Sequence record: OM630586.1
Strand: one strand, 5' to 3'
From: Escherichia phage vB_EcoP_LNA7
DNA: 39,592 bases
Part shown: positions 1,858 through 38,748 of the stretch, one piece after another
Layout: each line of letters opens with the position of its first letter
Numbering within the stretch: the stretch's first letter is position 1
The notes under the pieces: generated by a model
What the model saw: the letters and a program-made list of their open reading frames with translations, nothing else
What the model was told of the DNA's origin: nothing
The model's database searches: none
Position numbers and translations under genes: made by a program

Positions 1858-2250
1858 ATGGAGAATTGCATCGAGTGGACTAAAGGTACTAACCAGAAGG
1901 GTTACGGTAGGAAGTGGGTTGACGGTAAGCTGGTTGCGGCGCATCACCACGCCTATGAAGAAGTACACGGCCCTATTCCAGATGGTCTTGTAGTGATGCA
2001 CCTCTGTGACAATCCTAGATGCTATAACGTGGAGCACTTGACTCTTGGGACTCATGCTGACAACTCAGATGACAAGGTGCGTAAAGGTAGACAAGCAAAA
2101 GGTGAAACTCTAAGTAAGAAACTTACTGAGACAGATGTTTTGACTATTCGCACCTTAGACCTGCCGCATGCTGAGATAGCCAAGATATATGGTGTTAGTC
2201 AATCCACCATAACTCGCATAATTAGACGCGACACATGGAGGCATATCTAA
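1858..2250 (+). CDS. 7.7: gene 7.7 HNH homing-endonuclease-like protein
   Basis: 130 aa; HLCDNPRCYNVEHL HNH motif plus C-terminal HTH-like IAKIYGVSQSTITRIIRR; matches T7 gp7.7. Confidence 0.9.
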   Translation: MENCIEWTKGTNQKGYGRKWVDGKLVAAHHHAYEEVHGPIPDGLVVMHLCDNPRCYNVEHLTLGTHADNSDDKVRKGRQAKGETLSKKLTETDVLTIRTLDLPHAEIAKIYGVSQSTITRIIRRDTWRHI

Positions 2251-6856: not shown

Positions 6857-9241
6857 ATGGCACTCATTAGCCAATCAATCAAGAACTTGAAGGGTGGTAT
6901 CAGTCAACAGCCTGACATCCTTCGTTATCCCGACCAAGGGTCACGCCAAGTTAACGGTTGGTCTTCGGAGACCGAGGGCCTCCAAAAGCGTCCACCTATG
7001 GTCTTCTTAAAGACACTTGGAGACAACGGTGCTTTAGGTCAATCTCCGTACATCCACCTGATTAACCGTGATGAGAACGAACAGTATTACGCTGTGTTCA
7101 CCGGAACAGGAATCCGTGTGTTTGACCTTGCTGGTAACGAGAAGCAAGTTAGGTATCCTAACGGTTCCAACTACATCCAGACCGCTCAGCCACGTAACGA
7201 CCTGCGAATGGTTACTGTAGCAGACTATACGTTCATCGTTAACCGTAACGTTGTTGTACAGAAGGACCCACTTTATATCAACTTACCGAATTATAACCCT
7301 AAGCAGGACGCTCTGATAAACGTTCGCGGTGGTCAGTATGGTCGTACCTTACAGATTATGATTAACGGTGGTTTACAAGCCTCCTATCAGATTCCTGATG
7401 GTTCACAGCCAGCACACGTTAATAACACTGACGCTCAGTGGTTAGCAGAAGAGTTGGCTCGCCAGTGTAGAGCAAATACTCCGGGATGGACCTTCAATGT
7501 TGGGCAGGGTTTTATCCACATCATAGCACCTGCGGGTCAACAGATTGATTCCCTGATGACGAAGGATGGCTACGCAGACCAGTTGATTAACCCTGTGACC
7601 CACTACGCTCAGTCGTTCTCTAAGTTGCCACCTAATGCTCCTAATGGCTACATGGTGAAAATCGTAGGGGACGCCTCTAAGTCTGCCGACCAGTATTACG
7701 TTCGGTATGACGCTGAGCGGAAAGTTTGGGCTGAGACTTTAGGTTGGAACACTGAGTACCAAGTTCTATGGAACACCATGCCACACGCTCTTGTGCGAGC
7801 CTCTGATGGTAATTTCGACTTCAAGTGGCTTGAGTGGTCTCCTAAGTCTTGTGGAGACGTTGATACTAACCCTTGGCCTTCTTTTGTTGGTTCAAGTATC
7901 AACGATGTGTTCTTCTTCCGTAACCGCTTAGGATTCCTTAGTGGGGAGAACATCATACTGAGTCGTACAGCCAAATACTTCAACTTCTACCCTGCGTCCA
8001 TTGCGAACCTTAGTGATGACGACCCTATAGATGTAGCTGTGAGTACCAACCGAATAGCAATCCTTAAGTACGCCGTTCCGTTCTCAGAAGAGTTACTCAT
8101 CTGGTCCGACGAGGCACAATTCGTACTTACAGCGTCCGGTACACTTACGTCAAAGTCAGTTGAGTTGAACCTAACGACTCAGTTTGATGTGCAGGACCAA
8201 GCGAGACCTTATGGGATTGGGCGTAACGTCTACTTTGCCAGTCCGAGGTCCAGCTACACGTCCATCCACAGATACTACGCCGTGCAGGATGTAAGTTCCG
8301 TTAAGAACGCTGAGGATATCACAGCCCACGTTCCTAACTACATCCCAAATGGTGTGTTTAGTATTTGTGGTAGTGGTACTGAAAACTTCTGTTCGGTATT
8401 ATCTAACGGGGACCCAAGTAAAATCTTCATATACAAATTCCTGTACCTGAACGAAGAGTTAAGACAACAGTCGTGGTCACATTGGGACTTTGGGGAAAAC
8501 GTACAGGTTCTAGCGTGTCAGAGTATCAGCTCAGATATGTATGTTATTCTTCGCAATGAGTTCAATACGTTCCTAGCTAGAATCTCTTTCACTAAGAACG
8601 CCATTGACTTACGAGGAGAACCTTACCGTGCCTTTATGGACATGAAGGTTCGCTACACGATTCCTAGTGGAACATACAACGATGATACATTCACTACCTC
8701 TATCCATATTCCAACCATTTATGGTGCAAACTTCGGGAGGGACAAAATCACTGTATTGGAGCCTGATGGTAAGATAACCGTATGTGAGCAACCAACTGGT
8801 GGGTGGAATAGTGACCCTTGGCTGAGACTAAACGGTAACTTAGAGGGACGTGAAGTGTTCATTGGGTTCAACATACACTTCGTCTATGAGTTCTCTAAGT
8901 TCCTCATTAAGCAAACTGCCGACGATGGGTCTACCTCCACGGAAGACATTGGGCGCTTACAGTTACGCCGAGCGTGGGTTAACTACGAGGATTCTGGTAC
9001 GTTCGACATTTACGTTGAGAACCAATCGTCCAACTGGAAGTACACAATGGCTGGTGCCCGATTAGGCTCTAACACTCTGAGGGCAGGTCGGCTGAACTTA
9101 GGGACCGGACAATACCGATTCCCTGTGGTGGGTAACGCTAAGTTCAATACCGTATACATCGTGTCCGATGCGACTACTCCGCTGAACATCATTGGGTGTG
9201 GCTGGGAAGGTAACTACTTACGGAGAAGTTCAGGTATTTAA
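6857..9241 (+). CDS. 12: gene 12 tail tubular protein B (nozzle)
   Basis: ORF track 794 aa, same as T7 gp12. Confidence 0.95.
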   Translation: MALISQSIKNLKGGISQQPDILRYPDQGSRQVNGWSSETEGLQKRPPMVFLKTLGDNGALGQSPYIHLINRDENEQYYAVFTGTGIRVFDLAGNEKQVRYPNGSNYIQTAQPRNDLRMVTVADYTFIVNRNVVVQKDPLYINLPNYNPKQDALINVRGGQYGRTLQIMINGGLQASYQIPDGSQPAHVNNTDAQWLAEELARQCRANTPGWTFNVGQGFIHIIAPAGQQIDSLMTKDGYADQLINPVTHYAQSFSKLPPNAPNGYMVKIVGDASKSADQYYVRYDAERKVWAETLGWNTEYQVLWNTMPHALVRASDGNFDFKWLEWSPKSCGDVDTNPWPSFVGSSINDVFFFRNRLGFLSGENIILSRTAKYFNFYPASIANLSDDDPIDVAVSTNRIAILKYAVPFSEELLIWSDEAQFVLTASGTLTSKSVELNLTTQFDVQDQARPYGIGRNVYFASPRSSYTSIHRYYAVQDVSSVKNAEDITAHVPNYIPNGVFSICGSGTENFCSVLSNGDPSKIFIYKFLYLNEELRQQSWSHWDFGENVQVLACQSISSDMYVILRNEFNTFLARISFTKNAIDLRGEPYRAFMDMKVRYTIPSGTYNDDTFTTSIHIPTIYGANFGRDKITVLEPDGKITVCEQPTGGWNSDPWLRLNGNLEGREVFIGFNIHFVYEFSKFLIKQTADDGSTSTEDIGRLQLRRAWVNYEDSGTFDIYVENQSSNWKYTMAGARLGSNTLRAGRLNLGTGQYRFPVVGNAKFNTVYIVSDATTPLNIIGCGWEGNYLRRSSGI

Positions 9242-9742: not shown

Positions 9743-10333
9743 ATGTGTTGGATGGCTGCAATTCCAATCGCATTGGCTGGTGCTCAGGCTATTAGCGGTC
9801 AGAACACTCAGGCCAAAATGATTGCCGCTCAGACCGCTGCTGGTCGTCGTCAAGCTATGGAAATCATGAAGCAGACGAACATCCAGAATGCTGACCTATC
9901 GCTGCAAGCTCGAAGTAAACTTGAGGAAGCATCCTCTGAGTTGACCTCACAGAACATGCAGAAGGTCCAAGCTATGGGGTCTATCCGAGCGGCTATCGGA
10001 GAGAGTATGCTCGAAGGTTCCTCAATGGACCGCATTAAGCGAGTCACAGAAGGACAGTTCATTCGGGAAGCCAATATGGTAACTGAGAATTATCGCCGTG
10101 ACTACCAAGCAATCTTCGCACAGCAACTTGGTGGTACTCAAAGTGCTGCAAGTCAGATTGACGAAATCTATAAGGGCGAACAGAAACAGAAGAGTAAGCT
10201 ACAGATGATTCTTGACCCACTGGCTATCATGGGGTCTTCCGCTGCGAGTGCTTACGCAGACGGTAAGTTCGACTCTAAGTCCACAACTAAGGCACCTATT
10301 GTTGCCGCTAAAGGAACCAAGACGGGGAGGTAA
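9743..10333 (+). CDS. 14: gene 14 internal core protein
   Basis: ORF 9668..10333 trimmed to ATG 9743 (MCWMAAIPIAL), SD aaggaggg; 196 aa as in T7. Confidence 0.9.
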   Translation: MCWMAAIPIALAGAQAISGQNTQAKMIAAQTAAGRRQAMEIMKQTNIQNADLSLQARSKLEEASSELTSQNMQKVQAMGSIRAAIGESMLEGSSMDRIKRVTEGQFIREANMVTENYRRDYQAIFAQQLGGTQSAASQIDEIYKGEQKQKSKLQMILDPLAIMGSSAASAYADGKFDSKSTTKAPIVAAKGTKTGR

Positions 10334-10339
10334 TGAACT

Positions 10340-12583
10340 ATGAGTAAAATTGAATCTGCCCTTCAAGCGGCACAACCGGGACTCTCTCGGTTACGTAGTG
10401 GCGCTGGTGGTATGGGCTATCGTGCAGCAACCACTCAGGCTGAGCAACCAAGGTCAAGCCTATTGGACACCATTGGTCGGTTCGCTAAGGCTGGTGCCGA
10501 TATGTATACCGCTAAGGAGCAACGAGCACGCGACCTAGCTGACGAACGCTCTAACGAGATTATCCGTAAGCTGACTCCTGAGCAGCGCCGAGAAGCTCTC
10601 AACAACGGGACCCTTCTGTATCAGGATGACCCATACGCTATGGAAGCACTGCGAGTCAAGACTGGTCGTAACGCTGCGTACCTTGTGGACGATGATGTTA
10701 TGCAGAAGGTCAAAGAGGGTGTCTTCCGTACCCGTGAAGAGATGGAAGAGTATCGCCATAGTCGTCTTCAAGAGGGCGCTAAGGCATACGCTGAGCAGTT
10801 TGGTATTGACCCTGAGGACGTTGATTATCAGCGCGGTTTCAACGGGGACATCACTGAGCGTAACATCTCACTGTATGGCGCACACGATAACTTCTTGAGC
10901 CAGCAAGCTCAGAAGGGTGCCATCATGAACAGTCGAGTGGAACTCAACGGTGTCCTTCAAGACCCTGATATGCTGCGCCGCCCAGACTCTGCTGACTTCT
11001 TTGAGAAGTACATCGACAATGGTCTGGTTACTGGGGCAATCCCCTCTGATGCTCAAGCCACTCAGCTTATAAGTCAAGCGTTCAGTGATGCTTCTAGCCG
11101 TGCTGGTGGTGCTGACTTCCTGATGAGAGTCGGTGACAAGAAGGTAACACTTAACGGGGCCACTACGACTTACCGAGAGTTAATGGGTGAAGAACAGTGG
11201 AATGCTCTCATGGTCACAGCACAACGTTCTCAGTTTGAGAATGACGCTAAGCTGAACGAGCAGTATCGCTTGAAGATTAACTCTGCGCTGAACCAAGAGG
11301 ACCCTCGTACTGCGTGGGAGATGCTTCAAGGTGTCAAGGCTGAACTCGATAAGATTCAACCTGATGAGCAGATGACACCGCAACGTGAGTGGCTAATCTC
11401 AGCACAGGAGCAAGTGCAGAATCAGATGAACGCATGGACGAAAGCACAGGCCAAGGCTCTGGATGACTCAATGAAGTCTATGAACAAACTTGACGTAATC
11501 GACAAGCAGTTCCAGAAGCGAATCAACGGTGAGTGGGTCTCAACGGACTTCAAGGACATGCCAACAAACGAGAACACTGGTGAGTTCAAACATAGCGATA
11601 TGGTTAACTACGCCAATAAGAAACTCGCTGAGATTGACAGTATGGATATTCCAGATGCTACCAAGGACGCCATGAAGTTGAAGTATCTTCAAGCGGACTC
11701 TAAGGACGGTGCATTCCGTACAGCAATCGGGACCATGGTAACAGACGCTGGTCAAGAGTGGTCTGCCGCTGTGATTAACGGTAAGTTACCGGACAATACC
11801 CCAGCTTTGGATGCTCTACGCAGAATCCGCAATGCTGACCCTCAGTTGATTGCCGCTCTGTATCCTGACCAAGCTGAGTTATTCCTGACGATGGACATGA
11901 TGGACAAGCAGGGCATTGACCCTCAGGTTATTCTTGACGCTGACCGACTGACTGTCAAGCGATCCAAAGAGCAACGCTTTGAGGACGATAAAGCATTTGA
12001 GTCTGCATTAAATGCGTCTAAGGCTCCTGAGATTGCCCGTATGCCAGCGTCACTGCGAGAATCTGCACGTAAGATTTATGACTCCGTTAAGTATCGCTCA
12101 GGGAACGAAAGCATGGCTATGGAGCAGATGACCAAGTTCCTTAAGGAATCTACCTACACGTTCACTGGTGACGATGTTGATGGTGATACCGTTGGTGTAA
12201 TTCCGAAGAACATGATGCAAGTCAACTCTGACCCGAAATCGTGGGAGCAAGGTCGTGATATTCTGGAGGAAGCACGTAAGGGAATCATTGCGAGCAACCC
12301 TTGGATAACCAACAAGCAACTGACCATGTATTCTCAAGGTGACTCCATTTACCTCATGGACACCACTGGTCAAGTCCGAGTCCGATACGACAAAGAGCTA
12401 CTCTCGAAGGTCTGGAGTGAGAACCAGAAGAAACTCGAAGAGAAAGCTCGTGAGAAGGCTCTGGCTGATGCGAACAAGCGAGCACCTATAGTTGCAGCAA
12501 CGAAAGCCCGTGAAGCTGCTGCTAAACGAGTAAGAGAGAAACGTAAACAGACTCCGAAGTTCATCTATGGACGTAAGGAGTAA
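10340..12583 (+). CDS. 15: gene 15 internal core protein
   Basis: ORF track 747 aa, same as T7 gp15. Confidence 0.95.
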   Translation: MSKIESALQAAQPGLSRLRSGAGGMGYRAATTQAEQPRSSLLDTIGRFAKAGADMYTAKEQRARDLADERSNEIIRKLTPEQRREALNNGTLLYQDDPYAMEALRVKTGRNAAYLVDDDVMQKVKEGVFRTREEMEEYRHSRLQEGAKAYAEQFGIDPEDVDYQRGFNGDITERNISLYGAHDNFLSQQAQKGAIMNSRVELNGVLQDPDMLRRPDSADFFEKYIDNGLVTGAIPSDAQATQLISQAFSDASSRAGGADFLMRVGDKKVTLNGATTTYRELMGEEQWNALMVTAQRSQFENDAKLNEQYRLKINSALNQEDPRTAWEMLQGVKAELDKIQPDEQMTPQREWLISAQEQVQNQMNAWTKAQAKALDDSMKSMNKLDVIDKQFQKRINGEWVSTDFKDMPTNENTGEFKHSDMVNYANKKLAEIDSMDIPDATKDAMKLKYLQADSKDGAFRTAIGTMVTDAGQEWSAAVINGKLPDNTPALDALRRIRNADPQLIAALYPDQAELFLTMDMMDKQGIDPQVILDADRLTVKRSKEQRFEDDKAFESALNASKAPEIARMPASLRESARKIYDSVKYRSGNESMAMEQMTKFLKESTYTFTGDDVDGDTVGVIPKNMMQVNSDPKSWEQGRDILEEARKGIIASNPWITNKQLTMYSQGDSIYLMDTTGQVRVRYDKELLSKVWSENQKKLEEKAREKALADANKRAPIVAATKAREAAAKRVREKRKQTPKFIYGRKE

Positions 12584-15600: not shown

Positions 15601-16566
15601 GATGCTGCGCGTCAAGGTATGCTTGGGGATGTTATTAGTGCCACCCTAACAGGTAAGACTACCCGCTGGGAGAAAGAAGGATTCCTTCGCGGTGCCTCCG
15701 TAACTCCTGAGCAGATGGCTGGCATCAAGTCTCTCATCAAGGAACATATGGTACGCGGTGAGGACGGTAAGTTTACCGTTAAGGACAAACAAGCGTTCTC
15801 TATGGACCCACGGGCTATGGACTTATGGCGACTGGCTGACAAGGTAGCTGATGAGGCAATGCTGCGGCCACATAAGGTGTCCTTACAGGATTCCCATGCG
15901 TTCGGAGCATTAGGTAAGATGGTTATGCAGTTTAAGTCTTTCACTATCAAGTCCCTTAACTCTAAGTTCCTGCGGACATTCTACGACGGATACAAGAACA
16001 ACCGAGCGATTGACGCTGCGCTGAGCATTATCACCTCTATGGGTCTCGCTGGTGGTTTCTATGCTATGGCTGCACACGTCAAAGCATACGCTCTGCCTAA
16101 GGAGAAACGTAAGGAGTACTTGGAGCGTGCATTAGACCCAACCATGATTGCCCACGCTGCGTTGTCTCGTAGTTCTCAATTGGGTGCTCCTTTGGCTATG
16201 GTTGACCTAGTTGGTGGTGCCTTAGGGTTCGAGTCCTCCAAGATGGCTCGCTCTACGATTCTACCTAAGGATACCACGAAGGAACGTGACCCAAACAAAC
16301 CGTACACCTCTAGAGAGGTAATGGGCGCTATGGGTTCAAACCTTCTGGAGCAGATGCCTTCGGCTGGCTTTGTGGCTAACGTTGGTGCTACCTTAATGAA
16401 TGCTGCTGGTGTGGTTAACTCACCTAACAAAGCAACCGAGCAGGACTTCATGACTGGCTTGATGAACTCTACCAAAGAGTTAGTTCCTAACGACCCTCTT
16501 ACTCAACAGCTTGTGGTTAAGATTTATGAGGCCAATGGTGTTAACTTGAGGGAGCGTCGGAAATAA
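12610..16566 (+). CDS. 16: gene 16 internal core protein with N-terminal lytic transglycosylase domain
   Basis: ORF track 1318 aa, same as T7 gp16; transglycosylase-like N-terminus (ESRF...GMMQF). Confidence 0.95.
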   Translation: MDKYDKNVPSDYDGLFQKAADATGVSYDLLRKVAWTESRFVPTAKSKTGPLGMMQFTKATAKALGLRVTDGPDDDRLNPELAINAAAKHLAGLVGKFDGDELKAALAYNQGEGRLGNPQLEAYSKGDFASISEEGRNYMRNLLDVAKSPMAGQLETFGGITPKGKGIPAEVGLAGIGHKQKVTQELPESTSFDVKGIEQEAPAKPFAKDFWETHGETLDEYNNRSTFFGFKNAAEAELSNSVAGMAFRAGRLDNGFDVFKDTITPTRWNSHIWTPEELEKIRTEVKNPAYINVVTGGSPENLDDLIKLANENFENDSRAAEAGLGAKLSAGIIGAGVDPLSYVPMVGVTGKGFKLINKALVVGAESAALNVASEGLRTSVAGGDADYAGAALGGFVFGAGMSAISDAVAAGLKRSKPEAEFDNEFIGPMMRMEARETARNANSADLSRMNTENMKFEGEHNGVPYEELPTERGAVVLHDGSVLSASNPINPKTLKEFSEVDPEKAARGIKLAGFTEIGLKTLGSDDADIRRVAIDLVRSPTGMQSGASGKFGATASDIHERLHGTDQRTYNDLYKAMSDAMKDPEFSTGGAKMSREETRYTIYRRAALAIERPELQKALTPSERIVMDIIKRHFDTKRELMENPAIFGNTKAVSIFPESRHKGTYVPHVYDRHAKALMIQRYGAEGLQEGIARSWMNSYVSRPEVKARVDEMLKEVHGVKEVTPEMVEKYAMDKAYGISHSDQFTNSSIIEENIEGLVGIENNSFLEARNLFDSDLSITMPDGQQFSVNDLRDFDMFRIMPAYDRRINGDIAIMGSTGKTTKELKEEILALKAKAEGDGKKTGEVHALMDTVKILTGRARRNQDTVWETSLRSINDLGFFAKNAYMGAQNITEIAGMIVTGNVRALSHGIPILRDTLYKSKPVSAKELKELHASLFGKEVDQLIRPKRADIVQRLREATDTGPAVANIVGTLKYSTQELAARSPWTKLLNGTTNYLLDAARQGMLGDVISATLTGKTTRWEKEGFLRGASVTPEQMAGIKSLIKEHMVRGEDGKFTVKDKQAFSMDPRAMDLWRLADKVADEAMLRPHKVSLQDSHAFGALGKMVMQFKSFTIKSLNSKFLRTFYDGYKNNRAIDAALSIITSMGLAGGFYAMAAHVKAYALPKEKRKEYLERALDPTMIAHAALSRSSQLGAPLAMVDLVGGALGFESSKMARSTILPKDTTKERDPNKPYTSREVMGAMGSNLLEQMPSAGFVANVGATLMNAAGVVNSPNKATEQDFMTGLMNSTKELVPNDPLTQQLVVKIYEANGVNLRERRK

Positions 16567-16586
16567 TACGACTCACTATAGGGAGA
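16564..16586 (+). promoter_or_regulatory. Phage RNAP class III promoter phi17 (overlaps the gene 16 stop)
   Basis: taatacgactcactatagggaga. Confidence 0.95.
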
Positions 16587-16638
16587 GGCGAAAGAATCTT
16601 CTCCCTGTAGTCTCTTAGATTTACTTTAAGGAGGTCAA

Positions 16639-18438
16639 ATGGCTAACGTAATTAAAACCGTTTTGACTTACCAGTTGGATGGCTCCAATCGTGATTTTAA
16701 TATCCCGTTTGAGTATCTAGCCCGTAAGTTTGTAGTAGTAACCCTTATTGGCGTAGACCGAAAGGTCCTTACGATTAATACAGACTACCGTTTTGCTACT
16801 CGTACTACCATCTCACTGACTAAGGCTTGGGGTCCGTCAGATGGCTACATTACCATCGAGTTACGTCGAGTAACCTCCACGACCGACAGATTGGTTGACT
16901 TTACGGACGGCTCAATCCTCCGTGCGTATGACCTTAACGTTGCTCAGATTCAAACGATGCATGTAGCGGAGGAGGCGCGTGACCTGACTGCTGATACCAT
17001 CGGTGTCAATAATGATGGTCACTTGGATGCCCGTGGTCGTCGAATTGTGAACCTAGCGAACGCCGTGGATGACCGTGACGCTGTTCCGTTTGGTCAACTA
17101 AAGACCATGAACCAGAACTCGTGGCAGGCTCGTAATGAGGCCCTACAGTTCCGCAATGAGGCTGAGACTTTCAGGAATCAAGCGGAGGGCTTTAAGAATG
17201 AGTCCGGTACTAATGCTGCTAATACGAAGCAGTGGCGAGATGAGGCTAATGGGTTCCGAGATGAAGCCGAGCAATTCAAGAATACGGCTGGTCAATATGC
17301 TACATCTGCTGGGAACTCTGCTACTGCTGCGCATCAATCTGAGGTAAACGCTGAGAACTCTGCCACAGCATCCGCTAACTCTGCCGAATTGGCAGAACAG
17401 CAAGCAGACCGGGCTAAGAGCGAGGCGGATAAGCTGGCGAATAATAATGCGTTCGCGGGGACGCTATACTCCATAACCCCAGATAGTCCTGCTGTAATAG
17501 GCTCAGGTACTGTTACATTCAAGTCGTCCTATGCGGTGAATGCTCCAATACTTAGGGCGACAAAAGGTGGCATGTCTCTGGGGAGCGATAGAGTTGATGG
17601 AGATGGTACCTCCACGTTCATCAACTTCTACAAAAACGCTGTAAACGCTGTAGGTAGTATTCAAGTAGGAGATGACGGCACATTCACCATAAATTCCAAC
17701 GGCTGGACGAAACTCGCTGGTAGCGTCACACAGGTGAACCAGCTGCGTTCTGGATACTCAGAGGTTACAGTAAACAACAACAATGTAGCCGTCCACGCCA
17801 GAGCAACAAATCTCAGTGGGGGTGAGGGTCAGACAAACGCAGTATATAACAGATACACGATTGTAGGCCGAGGGTCTAGCGTCTCAGGGGCAGAGGGAGC
17901 GCTAATGGATTTTGGCATACGAGAGGTAGTAGGTAACAGGTATGAGGCATATATGTGGGTAGCAGGCTTTGGTGGATCAGCCGTGTGGACATTTGGTAAT
18001 AATGGCACGTTCAACAGCCCAGCCGATATAGTAGCCAACGGGTCGTTAGTCGCTAATCACAGTCTACGTATTGGGACATGTACCCACGCTGCCGATGGCA
18101 ACATTTTTGGCTCTATCTGGGGTAACGATTGGTTAACCAATTACCTAAACAGGTCGTTTAAGAGGAAAACCAAAGGATGGACTTCGGTGTGGAATGGGAG
18201 AATAGGTGCCGGAGGTGTAGCATGGCTGACCCAAGATGTACGTTTTAGAACCATTTGGATACGCACAGCGGCCCAGCCTAATACGTGGACGCCAATTCAA
18301 CTTGGCCCGGATGGGACGTATATGGCGCGACCTGACCCTGGCTGGATTAGGTTCACACTTGCTAACAATGGTACATCCATAACCAACAACCAAGATGATA
18401 ACTCTGTTCCTATCGAGATTGTCGTAGAGAATGAGTAA
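16639..18438 (+). CDS. 17: gene 17 tail fibre; T7-like N-terminus, non-T7 C-terminal receptor-binding region
   Basis: ORF track 599 aa; first ~260 aa match T7 gp17 (MANVIKTVLTYQLDGSNRDF...), remainder differs and the protein is 46 aa longer than T7 (553 aa). Confidence 0.9.
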   Translation: MANVIKTVLTYQLDGSNRDFNIPFEYLARKFVVVTLIGVDRKVLTINTDYRFATRTTISLTKAWGPSDGYITIELRRVTSTTDRLVDFTDGSILRAYDLNVAQIQTMHVAEEARDLTADTIGVNNDGHLDARGRRIVNLANAVDDRDAVPFGQLKTMNQNSWQARNEALQFRNEAETFRNQAEGFKNESGTNAANTKQWRDEANGFRDEAEQFKNTAGQYATSAGNSATAAHQSEVNAENSATASANSAELAEQQADRAKSEADKLANNNAFAGTLYSITPDSPAVIGSGTVTFKSSYAVNAPILRATKGGMSLGSDRVDGDGTSTFINFYKNAVNAVGSIQVGDDGTFTINSNGWTKLAGSVTQVNQLRSGYSEVTVNNNNVAVHARATNLSGGEGQTNAVYNRYTIVGRGSSVSGAEGALMDFGIREVVGNRYEAYMWVAGFGGSAVWTFGNNGTFNSPADIVANGSLVANHSLRIGTCTHAADGNIFGSIWGNDWLTNYLNRSFKRKTKGWTSVWNGRIGAGGVAWLTQDVRFRTIWIRTAAQPNTWTPIQLGPDGTYMARPDPGWIRFTLANNGTSITNNQDDNSVPIEIVVENE

Positions 18439-18466
18439 TCATTAACGTAAACCTTAGGAGGACATT

Positions 18467-18670
18467 ATGTTAAGCCTAGACTTCAACAACGAAGTCATAA
18501 AGGCTGCTCCAATTGCAGGGGCGGTAGGTGCTGAGGTAGCATCCCGCCTCTTCTGGGGCCTCTCATTGAACGAGTGGTTCTATGTAGCAGCTATCGCCTA
18601 CACAGTGGTTCAGATTGGTGCCAAGGTAGTCGACAAGATAATTGACTGGAAGAAAGCCAATAAGGAGTGA
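18467..18670 (+). CDS. 17.5: gene 17.5 class II holin
   Basis: ORF track 67 aa, hydrophobic, same size as T7 gp17.5. Confidence 0.9.
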   Translation: MLSLDFNNEVIKAAPIAGAVGAEVASRLFWGLSLNEWFYVAAIAYTVVQIGAKVVDKIIDWKKANKE

Positions 18671-21290: not shown

Positions 21291-21731
21291 ATGATAAGTA
21301 AGAAGAAGTATGTAGTTGATAAGGAGACTGGCTGCTGGAACTTTAAGGGATGTAAGACGAAGACTGGCTATGGTCGTCTCCGTGTAAATGGAGTCCATTG
21401 GATGGCCCACAGGTATTCCCTGAGTTGTCATCTAGGTAGACCGATAGCTGATGGAATGGTTGTGATGCACCTATGTGATAACCCATCATGTGTTAACCCT
21501 GAGCATCTTAAGGAAGGGACTCAGAAGGAGAACATAGAGGATTGTATATCAAAAGGAAGAGCAACAAAGGCTACTGGTAAACGTATGTCGAGAAGGGACC
21601 CTAGCGAGGAACGTAAGGCTATGGTCATTCGTCGCTACCATAAAGGATGGACAGCAACGTCCATAGCAAGATACCATAAGCTCTCTGTAGCGTGGGTAAA
21701 GAGGGTCATCGAGGCTTACCTAAGTGATTGA
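21291..21731 (+). CDS. Free-standing HNH homing endonuclease between genes 19 and 19.5 (no T7 counterpart at this position as far as I recall)
   Basis: ORF track 146 aa; HLCDNPSCVNPEHL HNH motif, paralogous to gp7.7; C-terminal HTH-like SIARYHKLSVAWVKRVI; SD aaggaggt. Confidence 0.85.
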   Translation: MISKKKYVVDKETGCWNFKGCKTKTGYGRLRVNGVHWMAHRYSLSCHLGRPIADGMVVMHLCDNPSCVNPEHLKEGTQKENIEDCISKGRATKATGKRMSRRDPSEERKAMVIRRYHKGWTATSIARYHKLSVAWVKRVIEAYLSD

Positions 21732-22285: not shown

Positions 22286-22446
22286 TCTCACAGTGTACGG
22301 ACCCAAAGTTCCCCCCATAGGGGCCCCTAAAGCCCAGCCAATCACCTAAAGTTACCTTTCAGTTGACCTTGAGGGGTCCCTAAGGGTTGGGGTTGACCCT
22401 TTGAGTGTCTCCTTGGGTGTTACCTTGAGTGTCTCTCTGTGTCCCT
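22286..22446. repeat. Terminal repeat (direct terminal redundancy), present once because the permuted assembly collapses the two ends; physical genome ends predicted near 22286 and 22446
   Basis: Starts tctcacagtgtacgg (canonical T7 left-end sequence) and ends ...ctctctgtgtccct; boundaries placed by recall of the T7 repeat. Confidence 0.7.
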
Positions 22447-23596: not shown

Positions 23597-23733
23597 TGGT
23601 TAAGTATGGTCTAACAAAAGAGATGATTCAGACGTACCGCGTAGCGATGGCTTATGGTGCTCCTTTCGGGTACTGCATGGCGCAATTAGCACAAATATAT
23701 CGAGCGCGTAAGGCGATGTACGGTAACAAGTGA
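23596..23733 (+). CDS. 0.4: gene 0.4-like small protein (divergent)
   Basis: Manual translation, 45 aa ([45 protein letters not shown]); ATG overlaps the 0.3 stop; weak similarity to recalled T7 gp0.4. Confidence 0.55.
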   Translation: MVKYGLTKEMIQTYRVAMAYGAPFGYCMAQLAQIYRARKAMYGNK

Positions 23734-23937: not shown

Positions 23938-24071
23938 TGAAGCACTACGTTATGCCTATCCACACGTCCAACGGGGCAACTGTATGCACACCTGATGGGT
24001 TCGCAATGAAACAACGAATCGAACGCCTTAAGCGTGAACTCCGCATCAACCGCAAGATTAACAAAATCTAA
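23934..24071 (+). CDS. 0.6: gene 0.6 small protein
   Basis: C-terminal part of ORF 23730..24071 from ATG 23934: MMKHYVMPIHTSNGATVCTPDGFAMKQRIERLKRELRINRKINKI. Confidence 0.7.
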   Translation: MMKHYVMPIHTSNGATVCTPDGFAMKQRIERLKRELRINRKINKI

Positions 24072-24089
24072 CTTTGGAGAATACATAAA

Positions 24090-25169
24090 GTGAACATCAC
24101 CGACATCATGAACGCTATCGACGCAATCAAAGCACTGCCAATCTGTGAACTTGACAAGCGTCAAGGTATGCTCATCGACTTGCTTGTAGAGATGGTCAAT
24201 AGTGAAACATGCAATGGCGAGCTAACCGAATTAAATCAGGCGCTTGAGTATCAAGATTGGTGGACTACCTTGAAGTGTCTCACGGCTGACGCAGGGTTCA
24301 AGATGCTCGGTAATGGTCACTTCTCGGCTGCTTATAGTCACCCGCTGCTGCCTAACAGAGTGATTAAGGTGGGCTTCAAGAAAGAGGACTCAGGCGCTGC
24401 GTATACCGCATTCTGCCGCATGTATCAGGGCCGCGCTGGTATCCCTAACGTATACGATGTACAGCGCCACGCTGGATGTTATACGGTGGTAATGGACGCA
24501 CTGAATGCTTGCGATAGTTACGATAACGATGAACACTATAAATACGCTGAGATTGCAAGCGACATTATTGACTTCAACTCAGATGAGCACGATGAGTTAA
24601 CTGGATGGGATGGCGAGTTCGTCGAGACTTGCAAGCTAATCCGCAAGTTCTTTGAGGGCATCGCTTCATTCGATATGCATAGCGGGAACATCATGTTCTC
24701 AAATGGAGACGTGCCGTACATTACCGACCCCGTGTCATTCTCGCAGAAGAAAGACGGTGGTGCGTTCAGTATTGACCCTGAGGAACTCATCAAGGAAGTC
24801 GAGGAAGTCACACGACAGAAAGAAATTGATAGCGCTAAGGACCGTAAAGCACGCCACGAGTGGCGCTTAGAGGTACGCAGAGTGAAACGCCGTAACCGTA
24901 AGGCACGTAAAGCACACCAAGCGAAGCACGATAGAATGCTTGCTGCGTGGCGCATGGCTGAGCGCCAAGAACGGCGTAACCATGAGGTAGCTGTAGATGT
25001 ACTGGGAAGGACTAATAACGCTATGCTCTGGGTTAATATGTTCGCTTGGGACTTTAAGGCGCTTGAGGAACGAGTTGCGATGAACTGGCGCAACGCTGAC
25101 CGGATGGCTATTGCTAACGGTCGTGCGCTCAACATCGACAAGCAACTTGACGCAATGCTAATGGGCTGA
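24090..25169 (+). CDS. 0.7: gene 0.7 Ser/Thr protein kinase and host transcription shut-off protein, GTG start
   Basis: ORF track 359 aa, same as T7 gp0.7; SD ggaga upstream of GTG. Confidence 0.9.
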
Positions 25170-28545: not shown

Positions 28546-29568
28546 ATGACTAACATTAAGACCAACCCATTTAAAGCCGTGTCTTTCGTAGAGTCTTCCA
28601 TTAAGAAAGCTCTGGATAACGCTGGGTATCTTATCGCTGAAATCAAGTACGATGGCGTGCGTGGTAACATCTGCGTAGACAATACCGCTAACAGTTGCTG
28701 GCTCTCTCGTGTATCTAAAACGATTCCGGCACTGGAGCACTTAAACGGGTTTGATGTTCGCTGGAAGCGTCTGCTGAGCGATGACCGTTGCTTCTACAAA
28801 GATGGCTTTATGCTTGATGGGGAACTCATGGTCAAGGGCGTAGACTTTAACACTGGGTCCGGCCTACTGCGTACCAAATGGACTGACACGAAGAACCAAG
28901 AGTTCCACGAAGAGTTATTCGTTGAGCCAATCCGTAAGAAAGATAAGGTTCCCTTTAAGCTGCACACTGGACACCTTCACGTCAAACTGTACGCTATCCT
29001 CCCGCTGCACATCGTGGAGTCTGGGGAAGACTGTGACGTCATGACGTTGCTCATGCAGGAACACGTTAAGAACATGCTGCCTCTGCTACAGGAATACTTC
29101 CCTGAAATCGAATGGCAAGCGGCTGAATCTTACGAGGTCTACGACATGGTGGAACTACAGCAACTGTACGAGAAGAAACGTGAAGAAGGGCATGAAGGTC
29201 TCATTGTGAAAGACCCGATGTGTATCTATAAGCGCGGTAAGAAGTCCGGCTGGTGGAAACTCAAGCCTCTTGAGGAAGCTGACGGCATCATTCAAGGTGT
29301 AAACTGGGGAACAGAAGGTCTAGCCAACGAAGGTAAAGTTATTGGCTTTAGTGTCTTGCTAGAAAGCGGGTGTGTAGTCGATGCCAATAACATCTCACGG
29401 GAACTGATGGATGAATTTACAGCTAACGTTAAAGAACATGGCGAGGACTACTATAACGGCTGGGCTTGTCAGATTGGGTACATGGAGCAAACACCTAATG
29501 GAAACCTCAGACACCCTTCCTTCACCTGCTTCCGTGGCACCGAGGACAACCCTCAAGAGAAAATGTAA
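28546..29568 (+). CDS. 1.3: gene 1.3 ATP-dependent DNA ligase
   Basis: ORF track 340 aa; adenylation-site lysine motif EIKYDGVRG; shorter than T7 ligase (359 aa) owing to a C-terminal deletion. Confidence 0.95.
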   Translation: MTNIKTNPFKAVSFVESSIKKALDNAGYLIAEIKYDGVRGNICVDNTANSCWLSRVSKTIPALEHLNGFDVRWKRLLSDDRCFYKDGFMLDGELMVKGVDFNTGSGLLRTKWTDTKNQEFHEELFVEPIRKKDKVPFKLHTGHLHVKLYAILPLHIVESGEDCDVMTLLMQEHVKNMLPLLQEYFPEIEWQAAESYEVYDMVELQQLYEKKREEGHEGLIVKDPMCIYKRGKKSGWWKLKPLEEADGIIQGVNWGTEGLANEGKVIGFSVLLESGCVVDANNISRELMDEFTANVKEHGEDYYNGWACQIGYMEQTPNGNLRHPSFTCFRGTEDNPQEKM

Positions 29569-29575
29569 TCACACT

Positions 29576-29605
29576 GGCTCACCTTCGGGTGGGCCTTTCT
29601 GCGTT
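29576..29605 (+). terminator. TE, early rho-independent terminator for host RNAP
   Basis: ggctcaccttcgggtgggcc GC hairpin followed by tttctgcgttt. Confidence 0.85.
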
Positions 29606-29628
29606 TAATACGACTCACTAAAGGAGGT
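29606..29628 (+). promoter_or_regulatory. Phage RNAP class II promoter phi1.5
   Basis: taatacgactcactaaaggaggt. Confidence 0.9.
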
Positions 29629-29635
29629 ACACATC

Positions 29636-29725
29636 ATGATGTACTTAATGCCATTACTCATCGTCATCGTAGGATGCCTTGCGCTTCACTGTAGCGATGA
29701 TGATATGCCAGATGGTCACGCTTAA
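29636..29725 (+). CDS. 1.5: gene 1.5 small protein
   Basis: Manual translation MMYLMPLLIVIVGCLALHCSDDDMPDGHA (29 aa), matches recalled T7 gp1.5. Confidence 0.7.
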   Translation: MMYLMPLLIVIVGCLALHCSDDDMPDGHA

Positions 29726-29745
29726 TACGACTCACTAAAGGAGAC
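29723..29745 (+). promoter_or_regulatory. Phage RNAP class II promoter phi1.6
   Basis: taatacgactcactaaaggagac. Confidence 0.9.
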
Positions 29746-29750
29746 ACTAT

Positions 29751-30011
29751 ATGTTTCGACTTCATTACAACAAAAGCCTTGAGAATTTCACGGTTCGCCG
29801 TGCTGACCGTTCAATCATATGTGCTAGCGAGCGCCGAGCTAAGTTACCTCTTATTGGTGACACAGTTCCTCTGGCACCGAGCGTCCACATCATTATCACC
29901 CGTGGTGACTTTGAGAAAGCAATAGACAAGAAACGTCCGGTTCTTAGTGTGGCAGTGACCCGCTTCCCGTTCGTCCGTCTGTTACTCAAACGAATCAAGG
30001 AGGTGTTCTGA
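29751..30011 (+). CDS. 1.6: gene 1.6 protein
   Basis: ORF track 86 aa, MFRLHYNKS... Confidence 0.85.
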
Positions 30012-30476
30012 TGTCCCATTATGATTTTTATGATGCCACGATTATCAAACTTATTGATATGAACGAAGGTAATTCAGACGATTTGTCTAACTGTTCCTTC
30101 CAGTGCGCTGGGATTCCTTGTAGCATCTGCCCAGCTAGGAATGATGATGATATGACACTAGGTGAAATCCGAGCGATGGACCCGCGTAAACCTCATCTGA
30201 ATAAACCAGAGGTAACTCCCACAGATGACCAGCCTTCCGCTGAGTCAATCGAAGGTGTCACTAAGCCTTCCCACTATATGCTGTTCGACGACATTGAGGC
30301 TATCGAAGTGATTGCCCGTTCAATGACTCGTGAGCAGTTCAAAGGGTACTGCTACGGGAACATCCTTAAGTATCGCCTACGTGCTGGTAAGAAGTCCGAA
30401 CTGGCTTACTTAGAGAAAGACATGGCGAAAGCTGGATTCTACGGTGAACTGTACGAGAAACATAAGGATAAGTGCT

Positions 30477-30860: not shown

Positions 30861-31559
30861 ATGGCTAAGAAGATTTTCACCTCTGCGCTGGGTACCGCTG
30901 AACCTTACGCTTACATCGCCAAGCCGGACTACGGTAACGAAGAGCGTGGCTTTGGGAACCCTCGTGGTGTATACAAAGTTGACCTGACTATTCCCAACAA
31001 AGACCCGCGCTGCCAGCGTATGGTCGATGAAATCGTGAAGTGTCACGAAGAGGCTTATGCTGCTGCCGTTGAGGAATACGAAGCGAATCCACCTGCTGTA
31101 GCTCGTGGTAAGAAACCGCTGAAACCGTATGAAGGCGACATGCCGTTCTTCGATAATGGTGACGGCACGACTACCTTTAAGTTTAAATCTTACGCATCAT
31201 ATCAGGATAAGAAGACCAAAGAGACCAAGCACATCAATCTGGTTGTGGTTGACTCCAAAGGTAAGAAGATGGAAGACGTTCCGATTATCGGTGGTGGCTC
31301 TAAGCTGAAAGTCAAGTACTCTCTGGTTCCGTACAAGTGGAACACCGCTGTCGGTGCGAGCGTTAAGTTGCAACTGGAATCCGTAATGCTGGTCGAACTG
31401 GCTACCTTTGGTGGTGGTGAAGATGATTGGGCTGACGAAGTTGAAGAGAACGGCTATGTTGCCTCTGGTTCTGCCAAAGCTAGCAAACCACGCGACGAAG
31501 AAAGCTGGGACGAAGACGACGAAGGCTCTTACGAAGAAGACTCAGACGGAGATTTCTAA
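30861..31559 (+). CDS. 2.5: gene 2.5 single-stranded DNA-binding protein
   Basis: ORF track 232 aa, acidic C-terminal tail ending ...DGDF. Confidence 0.95.
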   Translation: MAKKIFTSALGTAEPYAYIAKPDYGNEERGFGNPRGVYKVDLTIPNKDPRCQRMVDEIVKCHEEAYAAAVEEYEANPPAVARGKKPLKPYEGDMPFFDNGDGTTTFKFKSYASYQDKKTKETKHINLVVVDSKGKKMEDVPIIGGGSKLKVKYSLVPYKWNTAVGASVKLQLESVMLVELATFGGGEDDWADEVEENGYVASGSAKASKPRDEESWDEDDEGSYEEDSDGDF

Positions 31560-32015
31560 GTGGCTGGCGCATACGCTGCGCGTGGTATCCGAAAGGTCGG
31601 GACATTCCGTTCCGGCCTAGAAGATAAGGTCTCTAAGCAGCTAGAGAGTAAAGGTATACAGTTTGACTACGAGCAGTGGAAGATTCCCTACGTAGTCCCT
31701 GCGAGTAATCACACGTATTGCCCAGATTTTCTACTGCCCAATGGTATCTTCATCGAGACCAAGGGGCTATGGGAAAGTGACGACCGCAAGAAGCATCTCC
31801 TGATTCGCGAGCAGATGCCAGAGCTAGATATACGACTTGTGTTCTCAAGCTCCCGCACAAAACTCTACAAAGGGTCTCCAACGTCCTATGCAGAATTTTG
31901 TGAAAAACACGGTATCCTGTTTGCTGACAAATTAATTCCTGTAGAATGGCTCAAAGAACCCAAAAAGGAGGTGCCATTTGACAAGCTGAAACAATCGAAA
32001 GGAGGAAAGAAATAA
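31560..32015 (+). CDS. 3: gene 3 endonuclease I (Holliday junction resolvase), GTG start immediately after the gene 2.5 stop
   Basis: ORF track 151 codons, (M)AGAYAARGIRKVGTFRSGLEDKVSKQLESKGI..., matches T7 gp3; ggag 10 nt upstream of GTG. Confidence 0.85.
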   Translation: MAGAYAARGIRKVGTFRSGLEDKVSKQLESKGIQFDYEQWKIPYVVPASNHTYCPDFLLPNGIFIETKGLWESDDRKKHLLIREQMPELDIRLVFSSSRTKLYKGSPTSYAEFCEKHGILFADKLIPVEWLKEPKKEVPFDKLKQSKGGKK

Positions 32016-32470
32016 TGGCACGAGTACAATTTAAACAACGTGAATCTACTGATGCAATCTTTGTCCACTGCTCGGCTACAAAGCCAAGTCAGAATGTAGG
32101 GGTTCGCGAGATTCGCCAGTGGCATAAAGAGCAAGGTTGGCTTGATGTCGGGTATCACTTTATCATCAAGCGCGATGGTACTGTAGAGGAAGGCCGAGAT
32201 GAGATGGCTGTAGGCTCTCACGCTAAAGGCTATAATCATAACTCTATTGGTGTATGCCTTGTGGGTGGTATTGACGATAAAGGTAAGTTCAAGGCTAACT
32301 TTACGCCAGCCCAAATGCAATCCCTCCGCTCACTGCTTGTCACACTGCTGGCTAAGTACGAAGGCGCTGTGCTTCGCGCACATCACGATGTGGCTCCTAA
32401 GGCTTGCCCATCGTTCGACCTTAAGCGTTGGTGGGAGAAGAACGAACTGGTCACTTCTGACCGTGGATAA
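32015..32470 (+). CDS. 3.5: gene 3.5 lysozyme (N-acetylmuramoyl-L-alanine amidase) and inhibitor of phage RNAP
   Basis: ORF track 151 aa, MARVQFKQRESTDAIFVHCSATKPSQNVGVREIRQWHKEQGWLDVGYHFII... Confidence 0.95.
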   Translation: MARVQFKQRESTDAIFVHCSATKPSQNVGVREIRQWHKEQGWLDVGYHFIIKRDGTVEEGRDEMAVGSHAKGYNHNSIGVCLVGGIDDKGKFKANFTPAQMQSLRSLLVTLLAKYEGAVLRAHHDVAPKACPSFDLKRWWEKNELVTSDRG

Positions 32471-32471
32471 T

Positions 32472-32494
32472 TAATTGAACTCACTAAAGGGAGA
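32472..32494 (+). promoter_or_regulatory. Phage RNAP class II promoter phi3.8, followed by the gggagaccacaacggtttccc hairpin
   Basis: taattgaactcactaaagggaga. Confidence 0.85.
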
Positions 32495-32526
32495 CCACAA
32501 CGGTTTCCCTTTGTTCGCATTGTTGA

Positions 32527-34245
<1,719 letters not shown>

Positions 34246-34263
34246 AAGAATACTTGATGATTT

Positions 34264-34286
34264 TAATTAGACTCACTAAAGGAGCT
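34264..34286 (+). promoter_or_regulatory. Phage RNAP class II promoter phi4.3 (here directly upstream of an HNH gene)
   Basis: taattagactcactaaaggagct. Confidence 0.8.
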
Positions 34287-34292
34287 AACCAC

Positions 34293-34718
34293 ATGGACAC
34301 TAACTTAGCGAGATTTGAAAGATTCTTGAAGATTGATGGTGACTGCTGGCTGTTCACTGGTGGAAGGGCACACTCCTATGGAGTCTTCTGGATGAACGGT
34401 AAGAATCACAGGGCACATAGGGCCGCCTTCGAACTTTATAACGGGAGGAAACCTAATGGTGTTATATTACACTCTTGTGATAATCCTTTGTGCTGCAATC
34501 CCTCTCATCTATCTGAGGGAACTCAGCTTGATAATATGGTGGACATGGTTAGAAAGGGACGCTCACTGAGAGGCACGAAGAATCCAATGTGCAAGTTTAC
34601 TGATGTGGATGTTAAGTTCATCCGAGAGTCTACTATGAAGGTTAAGGATTTAGCTGCTTTATTCGGAGTAACACGCCAAACAATAACCAAATGGAGGAGA
34701 CACACATGTTCAAACTGA
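34293..34718 (+). CDS. Free-standing HNH homing endonuclease between promoter phi4.3 and gene 4.3
   Basis: ORF 34254..34718 trimmed to ATG 34293 (MDTNLARFERFLKIDGDCWLF...); LHSCDNPLCCNPSHL HNH motif; C-terminal HTH-like LAALFGVTRQTITKWRRH; 141 aa. Confidence 0.85.
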   Translation: MDTNLARFERFLKIDGDCWLFTGGRAHSYGVFWMNGKNHRAHRAAFELYNGRKPNGVILHSCDNPLCCNPSHLSEGTQLDNMVDMVRKGRSLRGTKNPMCKFTDVDVKFIRESTMKVKDLAALFGVTRQTITKWRRHTCSN

Positions 34719-37671: not shown

Positions 37672-38273
37672 AAACAAATTTCATTGTGCACATTAAATCT
37701 GGTGAACTCGGTGAAACCCTAATGGGGCAATACCGAGCCAAGCCATAGGGAGGATATATGAGAGGCAAGAAGTTAATTCTTGAGGCCACTGAGACTGGCT
37801 GTATCATCCCTACGTCACACAAACTTAATGCCGATGGTTATTTCAGAAAGAAAACCAATGGCGTCTTGGAGATGTATCACAGAACGGTGTGGAAGGAGCA
37901 TAATGGAGAAATACCAGAAGGCTTCGAGATAGACCATAAGTGTCGCAATAGGGCTTGCTGTAACATAGAGCATTTACAGATGCTTGAAGGTACAGCCCAC
38001 ACTGTTAAGACCAATCGTGAACGCTACGCAGACAGAAAGGAAACAGCTAGGGAATACTGGCTGGAGACTGGATGTACCGGCCTAGCACTAGGTGAGAAGT
38101 TTGGTGTGTCGTTCTCTTCCGCTTGTAAGTGGATTAGAGAATGGAAGGCGTAGAGACTATCCGAAAGGAGTAGGGCCGAGGGTGAGACTCCCTCGTAACC
38201 CGAAGCGCCAGACAGTCAACTCAAAGGCTGATGATATAGTCCGACACTCCTAGTAATAGGAGAATACAGAAAG
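37672..38273 (+). mobile_element. Group I self-splicing intron (602 nt) in DNA polymerase gene 5, carrying an HNH homing endonuclease ORF
   Basis: Exon 1 ends in U; intron ends in G; internal guide GUGCAC (37686..37691) pairs with exon end GUGCAU including the U.G wobble; R-like AGAGACUA (38152..38159) and S-like GAUGAUAUAGUCC (38230..38242) can form P7; joining the exons restores a 704-codon polymerase. Confidence 0.85.
37758..38153 (+). CDS. Intron-encoded HNH homing endonuclease
   Basis: ORF track 131 aa; EIDHKCRNRACCNIEHL HNH motif; own SD gggagg; lies entirely within the intron. Confidence 0.85.
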   Translation: MRGKKLILEATETGCIIPTSHKLNADGYFRKKTNGVLEMYHRTVWKEHNGEIPEGFEIDHKCRNRACCNIEHLQMLEGTAHTVKTNRERYADRKETAREYWLETGCTGLALGEKFGVSFSSACKWIREWKA

Positions 38274-38429
38274 GATGAAATTCAAGTAGGTTGCCGCACC
38301 GAAGAGATTGCTCAGGTGGTCATTGAGACCGCACAAGAAGCAATGCGCTGGGTTGGAGACCACTGGAACTTCAGGTGTCTTCTGGATACCGAAGGTAAGA
38401 TGGGTCCTAACTGGGCCGTATGTCACTGA
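38274..38429 (+). CDS. 5: gene 5 DNA polymerase, exon 2 (51 codons plus stop)
   Basis: Encodes DEIQVGCRTEEIAQVVIETAQEAMRWVGDHWNFRCLLDTEGKMGPNWAVCH, the canonical gp5 C-terminus, in frame with exon 1 once 37672..38273 is removed. Confidence 0.85.
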   Translation, partial: DEIQVGCRTEEIAQVVIETAQEAMRWVGDHWNFRCLLDTEGKMGPNWAVCH

Positions 38430-38448
38430 TTATATAGGAGAAATTATT

Positions 38449-38748
38449 ATGGCTATGACCAAGAAATTTAAAGTGTCCTTTGACGTTACCGCAAAGATGC
38501 CGTCTGACGTTCAGGCAATCTTAGAGAAAGACATGCTGCATCTATGCAAGCAGGTAGGCTCAGGTGCAATTATCCCCAATGGTAAACAGAAGGAAATGAT
38601 CGTCCAGTTCCTGACACACGGTATGGAAGGCTTGATGACATTCGTAGTACGTACAGCATTCCGTGAGGCAATCAAGGACATGCATGAATGGTATGCCTAT
38701 AAGGACTCCTTCAAACTCTCTCCTGCAACTGTACGGGAGGTGTTCTGA
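38449..38748 (+). CDS. 5.5: gene 5.5 protein (H-NS-binding in T7)
   Basis: ORF 38308..38748 trimmed to ATG 38449 (MAMTKKFKVSFDVTAKMPSDVQ...), 99 aa. Confidence 0.85.
   Translation: MAMTKKFKVSFDVTAKMPSDVQAILEKDMLHLCKQVGSGAIIPNGKQKEMIVQFLTHGMEGLMTFVVRTAFREAIKDMHEWYAYKDSFKLSPATVREVF

Follow-up and report, generated by a model that had tools for sequence, protein, structure and literature searches.

Compared with T7, the phage genome analyzed here lacks four small genes (1.4, 2.8, 3.8, and 5.3), and the junctions at their positions are compact. We estimate at roughly 88% the probability that these compact junctions are unoccupied insertion sites for small optional cassettes, T7 being a heavily invaded genome and the empty state being both the commoner and the older one. 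The four absences are not special to this genome, as every one of the four sites is also empty in vB_EcoP_IME390 (NC_048082) and in Salmonella phage 3A_8767 (NC_048004). The phenomenon itself, a presence/absence mosaic of homing endonuclease genes, has been described before, and public genomes already contain these very junctions.

Genome and backbone

The window, by which we mean the whole stretch of DNA analyzed (39,592 bp), is a circularly permuted genome of a T7-group phage in which the terminal repeat occurs once (blastn against T7, V01146). Colinear T7 blocks cover nearly all of it at 84-98% identity by segment, mostly 88-95% (blastn), which does not fit the "near-identical backbone" of the preliminary description. 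Comparison with 13a also gave colinear blocks (85-95% identity, blastn), and overall identity to T7 and 13a is about 91-94%. The best database matches all belong to Teseptimavirus (13a, Bas102, C5, JB01, T7, and the Yersinia YpP phages; ~89-94% identity), and the database search returned no record colinear with the window over its full length. Judged from its sequence, the lineage is distinct from T7 at the species level.

A search of the whole window for the T7-type promoter consensus TAATACGACTCACTATAGGGAGA at up to 3 mismatches gave 10 matches against 0 expected. This search omits phi1.5, phi1.6, and phi3.8, each of which differs at 4 or more positions; by alignment, the three copies are identical to T7's own. 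Gene order and identity on the one hand, and T7 promoters on the other, both identify the window as a natural Teseptimavirus phage. The terminal repeat was found as follows:

22286-22446: terminal repeat, T7-type, 161 bp, present once in the middle of the window and matching both T7 ends

Since this single 161-bp repeat matches both ends of T7, the physical ends of the genome lie at 22286-22446.

Four compact junctions relative to T7

An absence is a comparative claim which is settled by alignment, chance not being the relevant test. Blastn and three-way alignments with T7 and 13a revealed single clean gaps relative to T7 at 7594-7760 (gene 1.4), 11214-11585 (gene 3.8), and 16469-16834 (gene 5.3). 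The preliminary description had named these three intervals and expected them to align as gaps, as they do. Its reservation, that T7 might have the same compact junctions, does not apply, since T7 carries genes 1.4, 3.8, and 5.3 there. Each of its three absences stands; the list was incomplete in that it left out a fourth gene lacking relative to T7, the HNH gene 2.8. In tblastn searches (E <= 1e-3), T7 gp1.4 and gp5.3 had no match anywhere in the window, and T7 gp3.8 matched the window only over 35 residues of HNH motif, in the ORF of the predicted intron listed further below. The features of the four junctions are:

29576-29605 (+): early terminator TE, an 8-bp G+C-rich hairpin GGCTCACC-TTCG-GGTGGGCC (UUCG loop) at 29576-29595, then the tail TTTCTGCGTT
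29605-29606 (+): empty gene 1.4 site, the boundary between the TE tail and phi1.5, where T7 has 167 bp (7594-7760)
29606-29628 (+): promoter phi1.5, T7-type, TAATACGACTCACTAAAGGAGGT, identical to the annotated phi1.5 of T7 and 13a
29636-29725 (+): gene 1.5, a small ORF, 29/29 aa identical to T7 gp1.5 (tblastn)
31559-31560 (+): empty gene 2.8 site, where the gene 2.5 stop (31557-31559) adjoins the gene 3 GTG start (31560)
32472-32494 (+): promoter phi3.8, T7-type, TAATTGAACTCACTAAAGGGAGA, identical to the annotated phi3.8 of T7 and 13a
32495-32541 (+): empty gene 3.8 site, a 47-nt leader with a 5' hairpin (8 bp, from 32489) and the gene 4 ribosome-binding site TTAAGGAAT
32542-34245 (+): gene 4, primase-helicase, start MELEQDS, an N-terminus common to all ten relatives examined that lack gene 3.8
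38430-38448 (+): empty gene 5.3 site, a 19-nt spacer with the ribosome-binding site TAGGAG, between the gene 5 stop and the gene 5.5 start

The ligase ORF (gene 1.3) ends at 29568. TE is identical to the annotated TE of T7 (alignment) and folds at -15.4 kcal/mol (z = -3.45). A simple terminator and promoter scan picked up neither TE nor phi1.5; it overlooked TE because the T-run is interrupted, and phi1.5 because it models sigma-70 promoters only. Both were instead placed by alignment to the annotated features of T7 and 13a. The succession first described, TE followed directly by phi1.5 at 29606 without gene 1.4, was borne out, with the exact position of phi1.5 being 5 nt past the TE tail. The boundary CTGCGT/TTAATACGACTC is identical in 13a, AH67C600_Q5, C5, SYGE1, IME390, and 3A_8767. 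In T7, gene 1.4 begins exactly where TE ends and finishes exactly where phi1.5 begins.

T7 gp1.4 is a protein of 51 aa whose sole Pfam match is DUF5464 (E = 2.3e-36). Gene 1.4 is a non-nuclease gene, without the nuclease domain that defines a homing endonuclease, and its earlier inclusion among "selfish nuclease genes" is withdrawn. Its presence or absence thus needs a mechanism other than homing. The leader of T7 gene 1.4, TATAAGGAGACACTTTATGTTT (T7 7594-7613), closely resembles the phi1.6/gene 1.6 leader CTAAAGGAGACACTATATGTTT (window 29728-29756), and this likeness suggests that recombination at promoter-like repeats brought in or removed the 1.4 cassette. In Bas102, an HNH endonuclease gene (10822-11292) lies at the ligase/gene 1.5 junction, overlapping the 3' end of the ligase gene, in place of TE; the 1.3/1.5 site is therefore a target of nuclease genes as well.

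At the 2.5/3 junction, alignment shows a 420-bp HNH gene, 2.8, in T7. A total of 67 phage records align colinearly across the junction of the window; in T7 records, without exception, the alignment is interrupted precisely where 2.8 is inserted. T7 gp2.8 matches Pfam HNH_3 (E = 6.8e-6) and zf-His_Me_endon (His-Me zinc loop).

The gene 3.5 stop, at 32468-32470, precedes phi3.8. For this junction, the coordinates of phi3.8 and of the gene 4 start and the absence of gene 3.8 were correctly described from the outset; the spacer, then given as 48 nt (the coordinate difference), is 47 nt, which is too short for an ORF. The phi3.8/gene 4 junction is colinear as one blast piece in at least 35 phage records, among them Stenotrophomonas, Aeromonas, and Erwinia phages at 75-80% identity. 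T7 gp3.8 matches Pfam HNH_3 (E = 3e-15) and is 31.5% identical to 13a gp3.8.

The first 6-9 codons of the essential primase-helicase, together with its ribosome-binding site, co-vary with the occupancy of the 3.8 site (window 32542-32560). Phages without gene 3.8 have the MELEQDS start and the ribosome-binding site TTAAGGAAT, and T3 has MEREDDS. T7 and 13a start with MDNSHDS and MDNMLDS, respectively, and in both the start codon lies within the 3' end of gene 3.8 (T7 11565-11590, 13a 9873-9895). A MELEQDS-type start is replaced only where a 3.8 gene overlaps the start of gene 4, and window positions 32522-32557 cannot be aligned to T7. From this comparison, the T7 form of the gene 4 start looks derived and the empty-site form, akin to that of T3, looks ancestral.

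At the 5/5.5 junction, the polymerase stop at 38427-38429 (TGA), the 19 nt that follow, the gene 5.5 start at 38449 (ATG), and the absence of gene 5.3 were all confirmed. The 13a spacer is of equal length with one mismatch in 19 nt, and Serratia, Klebsiella, Enterobacter, and Salmonella phages are colinear with the window across this junction. Compared with T7, 5 of the 48 gene 5 nucleotides that precede the insertion point are different, as are several bases just after it. T7 gp5.3 matches PDDEXK_5 (E = 1.1e-10) and is a PD-(D/E)XK nuclease, not an HNH protein, whereas gp5.3 of T3 is of the HNH type; a single site thus holds unrelated occupants. We take unlike occupants at the same intergenic sites as marks of recurrent, independent invasion.

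Genes 2.8, 3.8, and 5.3 of T7 therefore belong to nuclease families, and their domain matches make them putative homing endonuclease genes. Among the papers covered by a literature search, there was no biochemical characterization and no cleavage or homing report for T7 gp2.8, gp3.8, or gp5.3.

Endonuclease genes of the window and site occupancy in relatives

The window carries endonuclease genes at other positions:

1858-2250 (+): gene 7.7, HNH + HTH endonuclease, Pfam HNH_3 E = 3.7e-15, 70% aa identity to T7 gp7.7
21291-21731 (+): free-standing HNH + HTH gene between gene 19 and phiOR, Pfam HNH_3 E = 9.5e-9, an insertion relative to T7 at the position of 13a gene 19.4
34293-34718 (+): free-standing HNH + HTH gene between genes 4 and 4.3, Pfam HNH_3 E = 3e-12 (ORF 34254-34718), an insertion relative to T7
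37672-38273 (+): predicted group I intron, 602 nt, in DNA polymerase gene 5, holding the HNH ORF 37758-38153 (Pfam HNH_3 E = 3.5e-16)

These results agree with the earlier statement that the set and placement of endonuclease genes differ from those of T7: three HNH_3 ORFs are extra and gene 7.7 is common to both (Pfam, blastn). Of the free-standing genes, the 4/4.3 one encodes a protein with 96% aa identity to Bas102_0026, and the one after gene 19 a protein with 71% aa identity to 13a gp19.4. A promoter-like copy, TTAATTAGACTCACTAAAGGAG, lies upstream of the former gene at 34263-34285; with this second promoter-like element ahead of the HNH gene, the 4/4.3 cassette is flanked by promoter repeats.

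HNH-containing group I introns have been described in the DNA polymerase genes of T7-like phages. An Rfam scan of the whole window at the gathering threshold returned nothing, and a relaxed scan matched the gene 5 insertion to the full-length RF00028 model at 44.8 bits, under the gathering score of 50 (E = 4.4e-10). Excision of 37672-38273 in silico restores a gp5 of 704 aa, 681/704 (97%) of which are identical to T7 gp5. The predicted intron has the canonical U before the 5' splice site and G at its 3' end, and the 13a and Bas102 records give gene 5 as a join that skips the same ORF.

Occupancy of the four sites was scored in 12 relatives by means of anchor sequences. JB01 was left unscored at the 1.4 site, its record being permuted, and T7, 13a, AH67C600_Q5, and SYGE1 were scored at the 2.8 and 3.8 sites from alignments and annotations, as the anchors did not align. 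The resulting matrix is:

1.4 site: empty in 13a, AH67C600_Q5, C5, SYGE1, IME390, and 3A_8767; occupied in T7, vB_YpYeO9, Pila, and UFV01 (gene 1.4) and in Bas102 (unrelated HNH gene)
2.8 site: occupied in T7, AH67C600_Q5, and SYGE1; empty in the other nine of 12
3.8 site: occupied in T7 and 13a; empty in the other ten of 12
5.3 site: occupied in T7 and vB_YpYeO9; empty in the other ten of 12

The longer ligase-to-1.6 interval of C5 and SYGE1 was considered as occupancy of the 1.4 site and rejected, the extra DNA lying after gene 1.5 (MAFFT). Alignments, matrix, and collection-wide junction searches all showed precise presence or absence between colinear close relatives at the 2.8, 3.8, and 5.3 sites. 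Closely related T7-like phages have been described as differing in whether they carry homing endonuclease genes at the 5.3 and 3.8 positions (PMC4925675). The preliminary description had called the genes "missing", which implies loss. However, the compact junctions are common in relatives and also occur in T3, an outgroup, at the 1.4, 2.8, and 3.8 sites; this corrects a T7-centred view, the "missing" genes being optional passengers that most relatives are also without.

Each of the named relatives resembles the window in a different part of this pattern. T7 shares gene order, phi1.5, phi1.6, phi3.8, TE, the essential genes, and gene 7.7. It differs in having genes 1.4, 2.8, 3.8, and 5.3, in its tail-fibre C-terminus, and in being without the 4/4.3 HNH gene, the predicted gene 5 intron, and the HNH gene at the 19.4 position. 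The Teseptimavirus 13a (NC_011045 / EU734174) has TE/phi1.5 and 2.5/3 junctions identical to those of the window and is without genes 1.4, 2.8, and 5.3. It also has the predicted group I intron in gene 5, with an HNH ORF at 87% aa identity, and an HNH gene at the 19.4 position. Unlike the window, 13a carries a 160-aa HNH gene 3.8, with the gene 4 start MDNMLDS that goes with it, lacks an HNH gene in the 4/4.3 interval, and has another variant of 7.7.

IME390 and 3A_8767 have the junction lengths of the window (5, 27, 49, and 19 nt between the anchors used) but neither the 4/4.3 HNH gene nor the predicted gene 5 intron. Escherichia phage MeretOppenheim_Bas102 (PQ850620) is empty at the 2.8, 3.8, and 5.3 sites and, like the window, has the 4/4.3 HNH gene, the predicted gene 5 intron with its HNH ORF, and a T7-type gene 7.7; it differs by the other HNH gene at ligase/1.5 in place of TE and by having no HNH gene at the 19.4 position. 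T3 (NC_003298), a Teetrevirus, is annotated with TE, phi1.5, and gene 1.5 in succession, with gene 2.5 followed by gene 3, and with phi3.8 followed by gene 4, nothing lying between, as in the window. T3 differs in its genus, its HNH gene at the 5.3 position, its gene 3.7, and its T3-type promoters. The combination of occupied and empty endonuclease sites in the window matches none of the 12 relatives compared, and the junction pattern is a useful fingerprint to place a phage among T7-group mosaics.

Origin of the compact junctions

In the reading that we favor, the T7 sites would have been filled by HNH genes at 2.8 and 3.8, a PD-(D/E)XK gene at 5.3, and the 51-aa DUF5464 gene at 1.4, the nuclease genes being putative selfish elements of the homing type. 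In a mixed infection, such a nuclease would cut the genome without the gene, and repair by recombination would then fill the break with a copy of the gene and part of its flanks. Homing into gene-less genomes would leave each site occupied or empty independently by lineage, and the four sites do assort independently among the 12 relatives. The window phage would itself have been invaded at three other places: the 4/4.3 interval, gene 5 (by way of the predicted intron), and the region following gene 19. Homing as the mechanism is inferred from domain content, and gain in T7 as the direction of change is most probable on comparative grounds.

TE, phi1.5, phi3.8, the ribosome-binding sites, and the start codons are intact, so that the window has functional junctions and not deletion scars. 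Because the gene 4 start is shared, the 3.8 proteins are unlike each other, and the 5.3 occupants differ, the sites of the window read as uninvaded and probably ancestral. This ancestral reading is most probably correct as a matter of parsimony over mosaic, recombining phages, which is not the same as a rigorous ancestral-state reconstruction. For gene 1.4, T3 and a majority of relatives (7 of 12) hint weakly at the polarity.

The sequence beside the 3.8 site, which differs between occupied and empty forms (32522-32557 and the N-terminus of gene 4), would also fit selection for immunity, the empty sites being kept because T7-type nucleases cannot cut them, for instance at a different 5' end of gene 4. 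We consider this unlikely, as the empty-form gene 4 start is common to T3 and looks ancestral rather than like an escape variant, and the flanks at the 1.4 and 2.8 junctions match those of T7 (those at 5.3 differ somewhat). It is similarly doubtful that the window represents a previously undeposited species-level member of Teseptimavirus whose empty 2.8, 3.8, and 5.3 sites are cleavage-resistant alleles. If they were, the phage would be a natural partner with which to measure homing and marker exclusion by T7 gp2.8, gp3.8, and gp5.3.

Secondary loss appears somewhat less probable still. Here, an ancestor with the T7 gene set would have lost 1.4, 2.8, 3.8, and 5.3 by precise deletions selected for a smaller genome or faster replication. 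The genes are dispensable, and T7 mutants with a disrupted gp5.3 took over evolving populations in serial passage (PMC9825161); laboratory T7 derivatives without the 1.4 and 5.3 regions are on record (MZ375xxx), and the promoter-like repeats at the edges of gene 1.4 could mediate deletion. However, the laboratory deletion junctions are different ones, spanning 367 bp at 87.5% identity against 341 bp colinear in the natural form. The junctions of the window match many independent isolates and, at three of the four sites, also T3. No coding remnants are present in the window, and MELEQDS of gene 4 matches the start of T3, the T7 form being apparently derived. Four precise losses, each remaking a T3-like junction, would be less parsimonious than gains in T7.

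An artefact of assembly collapse or a laboratory genome-reduced T7 is extremely improbable: the permuted assembly with its single terminal repeat is indeed an assembler product, and reduced T7 genomes do exist in public records, but signals are intact at every junction, the same junctions occur in many independently sequenced natural isolates, insertions relative to T7 are present which collapse would not create, and a laboratory genome-reduced T7 is ruled out by the junction sequence and by a backbone only ~91-94% identical to T7, with substitutions throughout. Unoccupied insertion sites thus remain our preferred explanation of the compact junctions. It implies no new mechanism or gene and supports the textbook picture in which mobile nuclease genes and promoter-flanked cassettes make up most gene-content differences among close T7 relatives.

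Further differences from T7 were observed away from the four sites. About 250 bp of the T7 0.6B/0.7-upstream region are absent (window 24067-24091), a divergent 45-aa ORF stands in place of T7's in the gene 0.4 region (window 23598-23729), and gene 1.7 is shorter than that of T7 in its N-terminal part (158 vs 196 aa; window 30013-30126). The tail-fibre gene 17 (599 aa) has a C-terminal region of ~1 kb (17449-18477) that cannot be aligned with T7 or 13a. The sole megablast match of this region in 50,697 phage records is phage JacobBurckhardt (MZ501078, 95.2%), and the difference is probably a swap of the receptor-binding domain.
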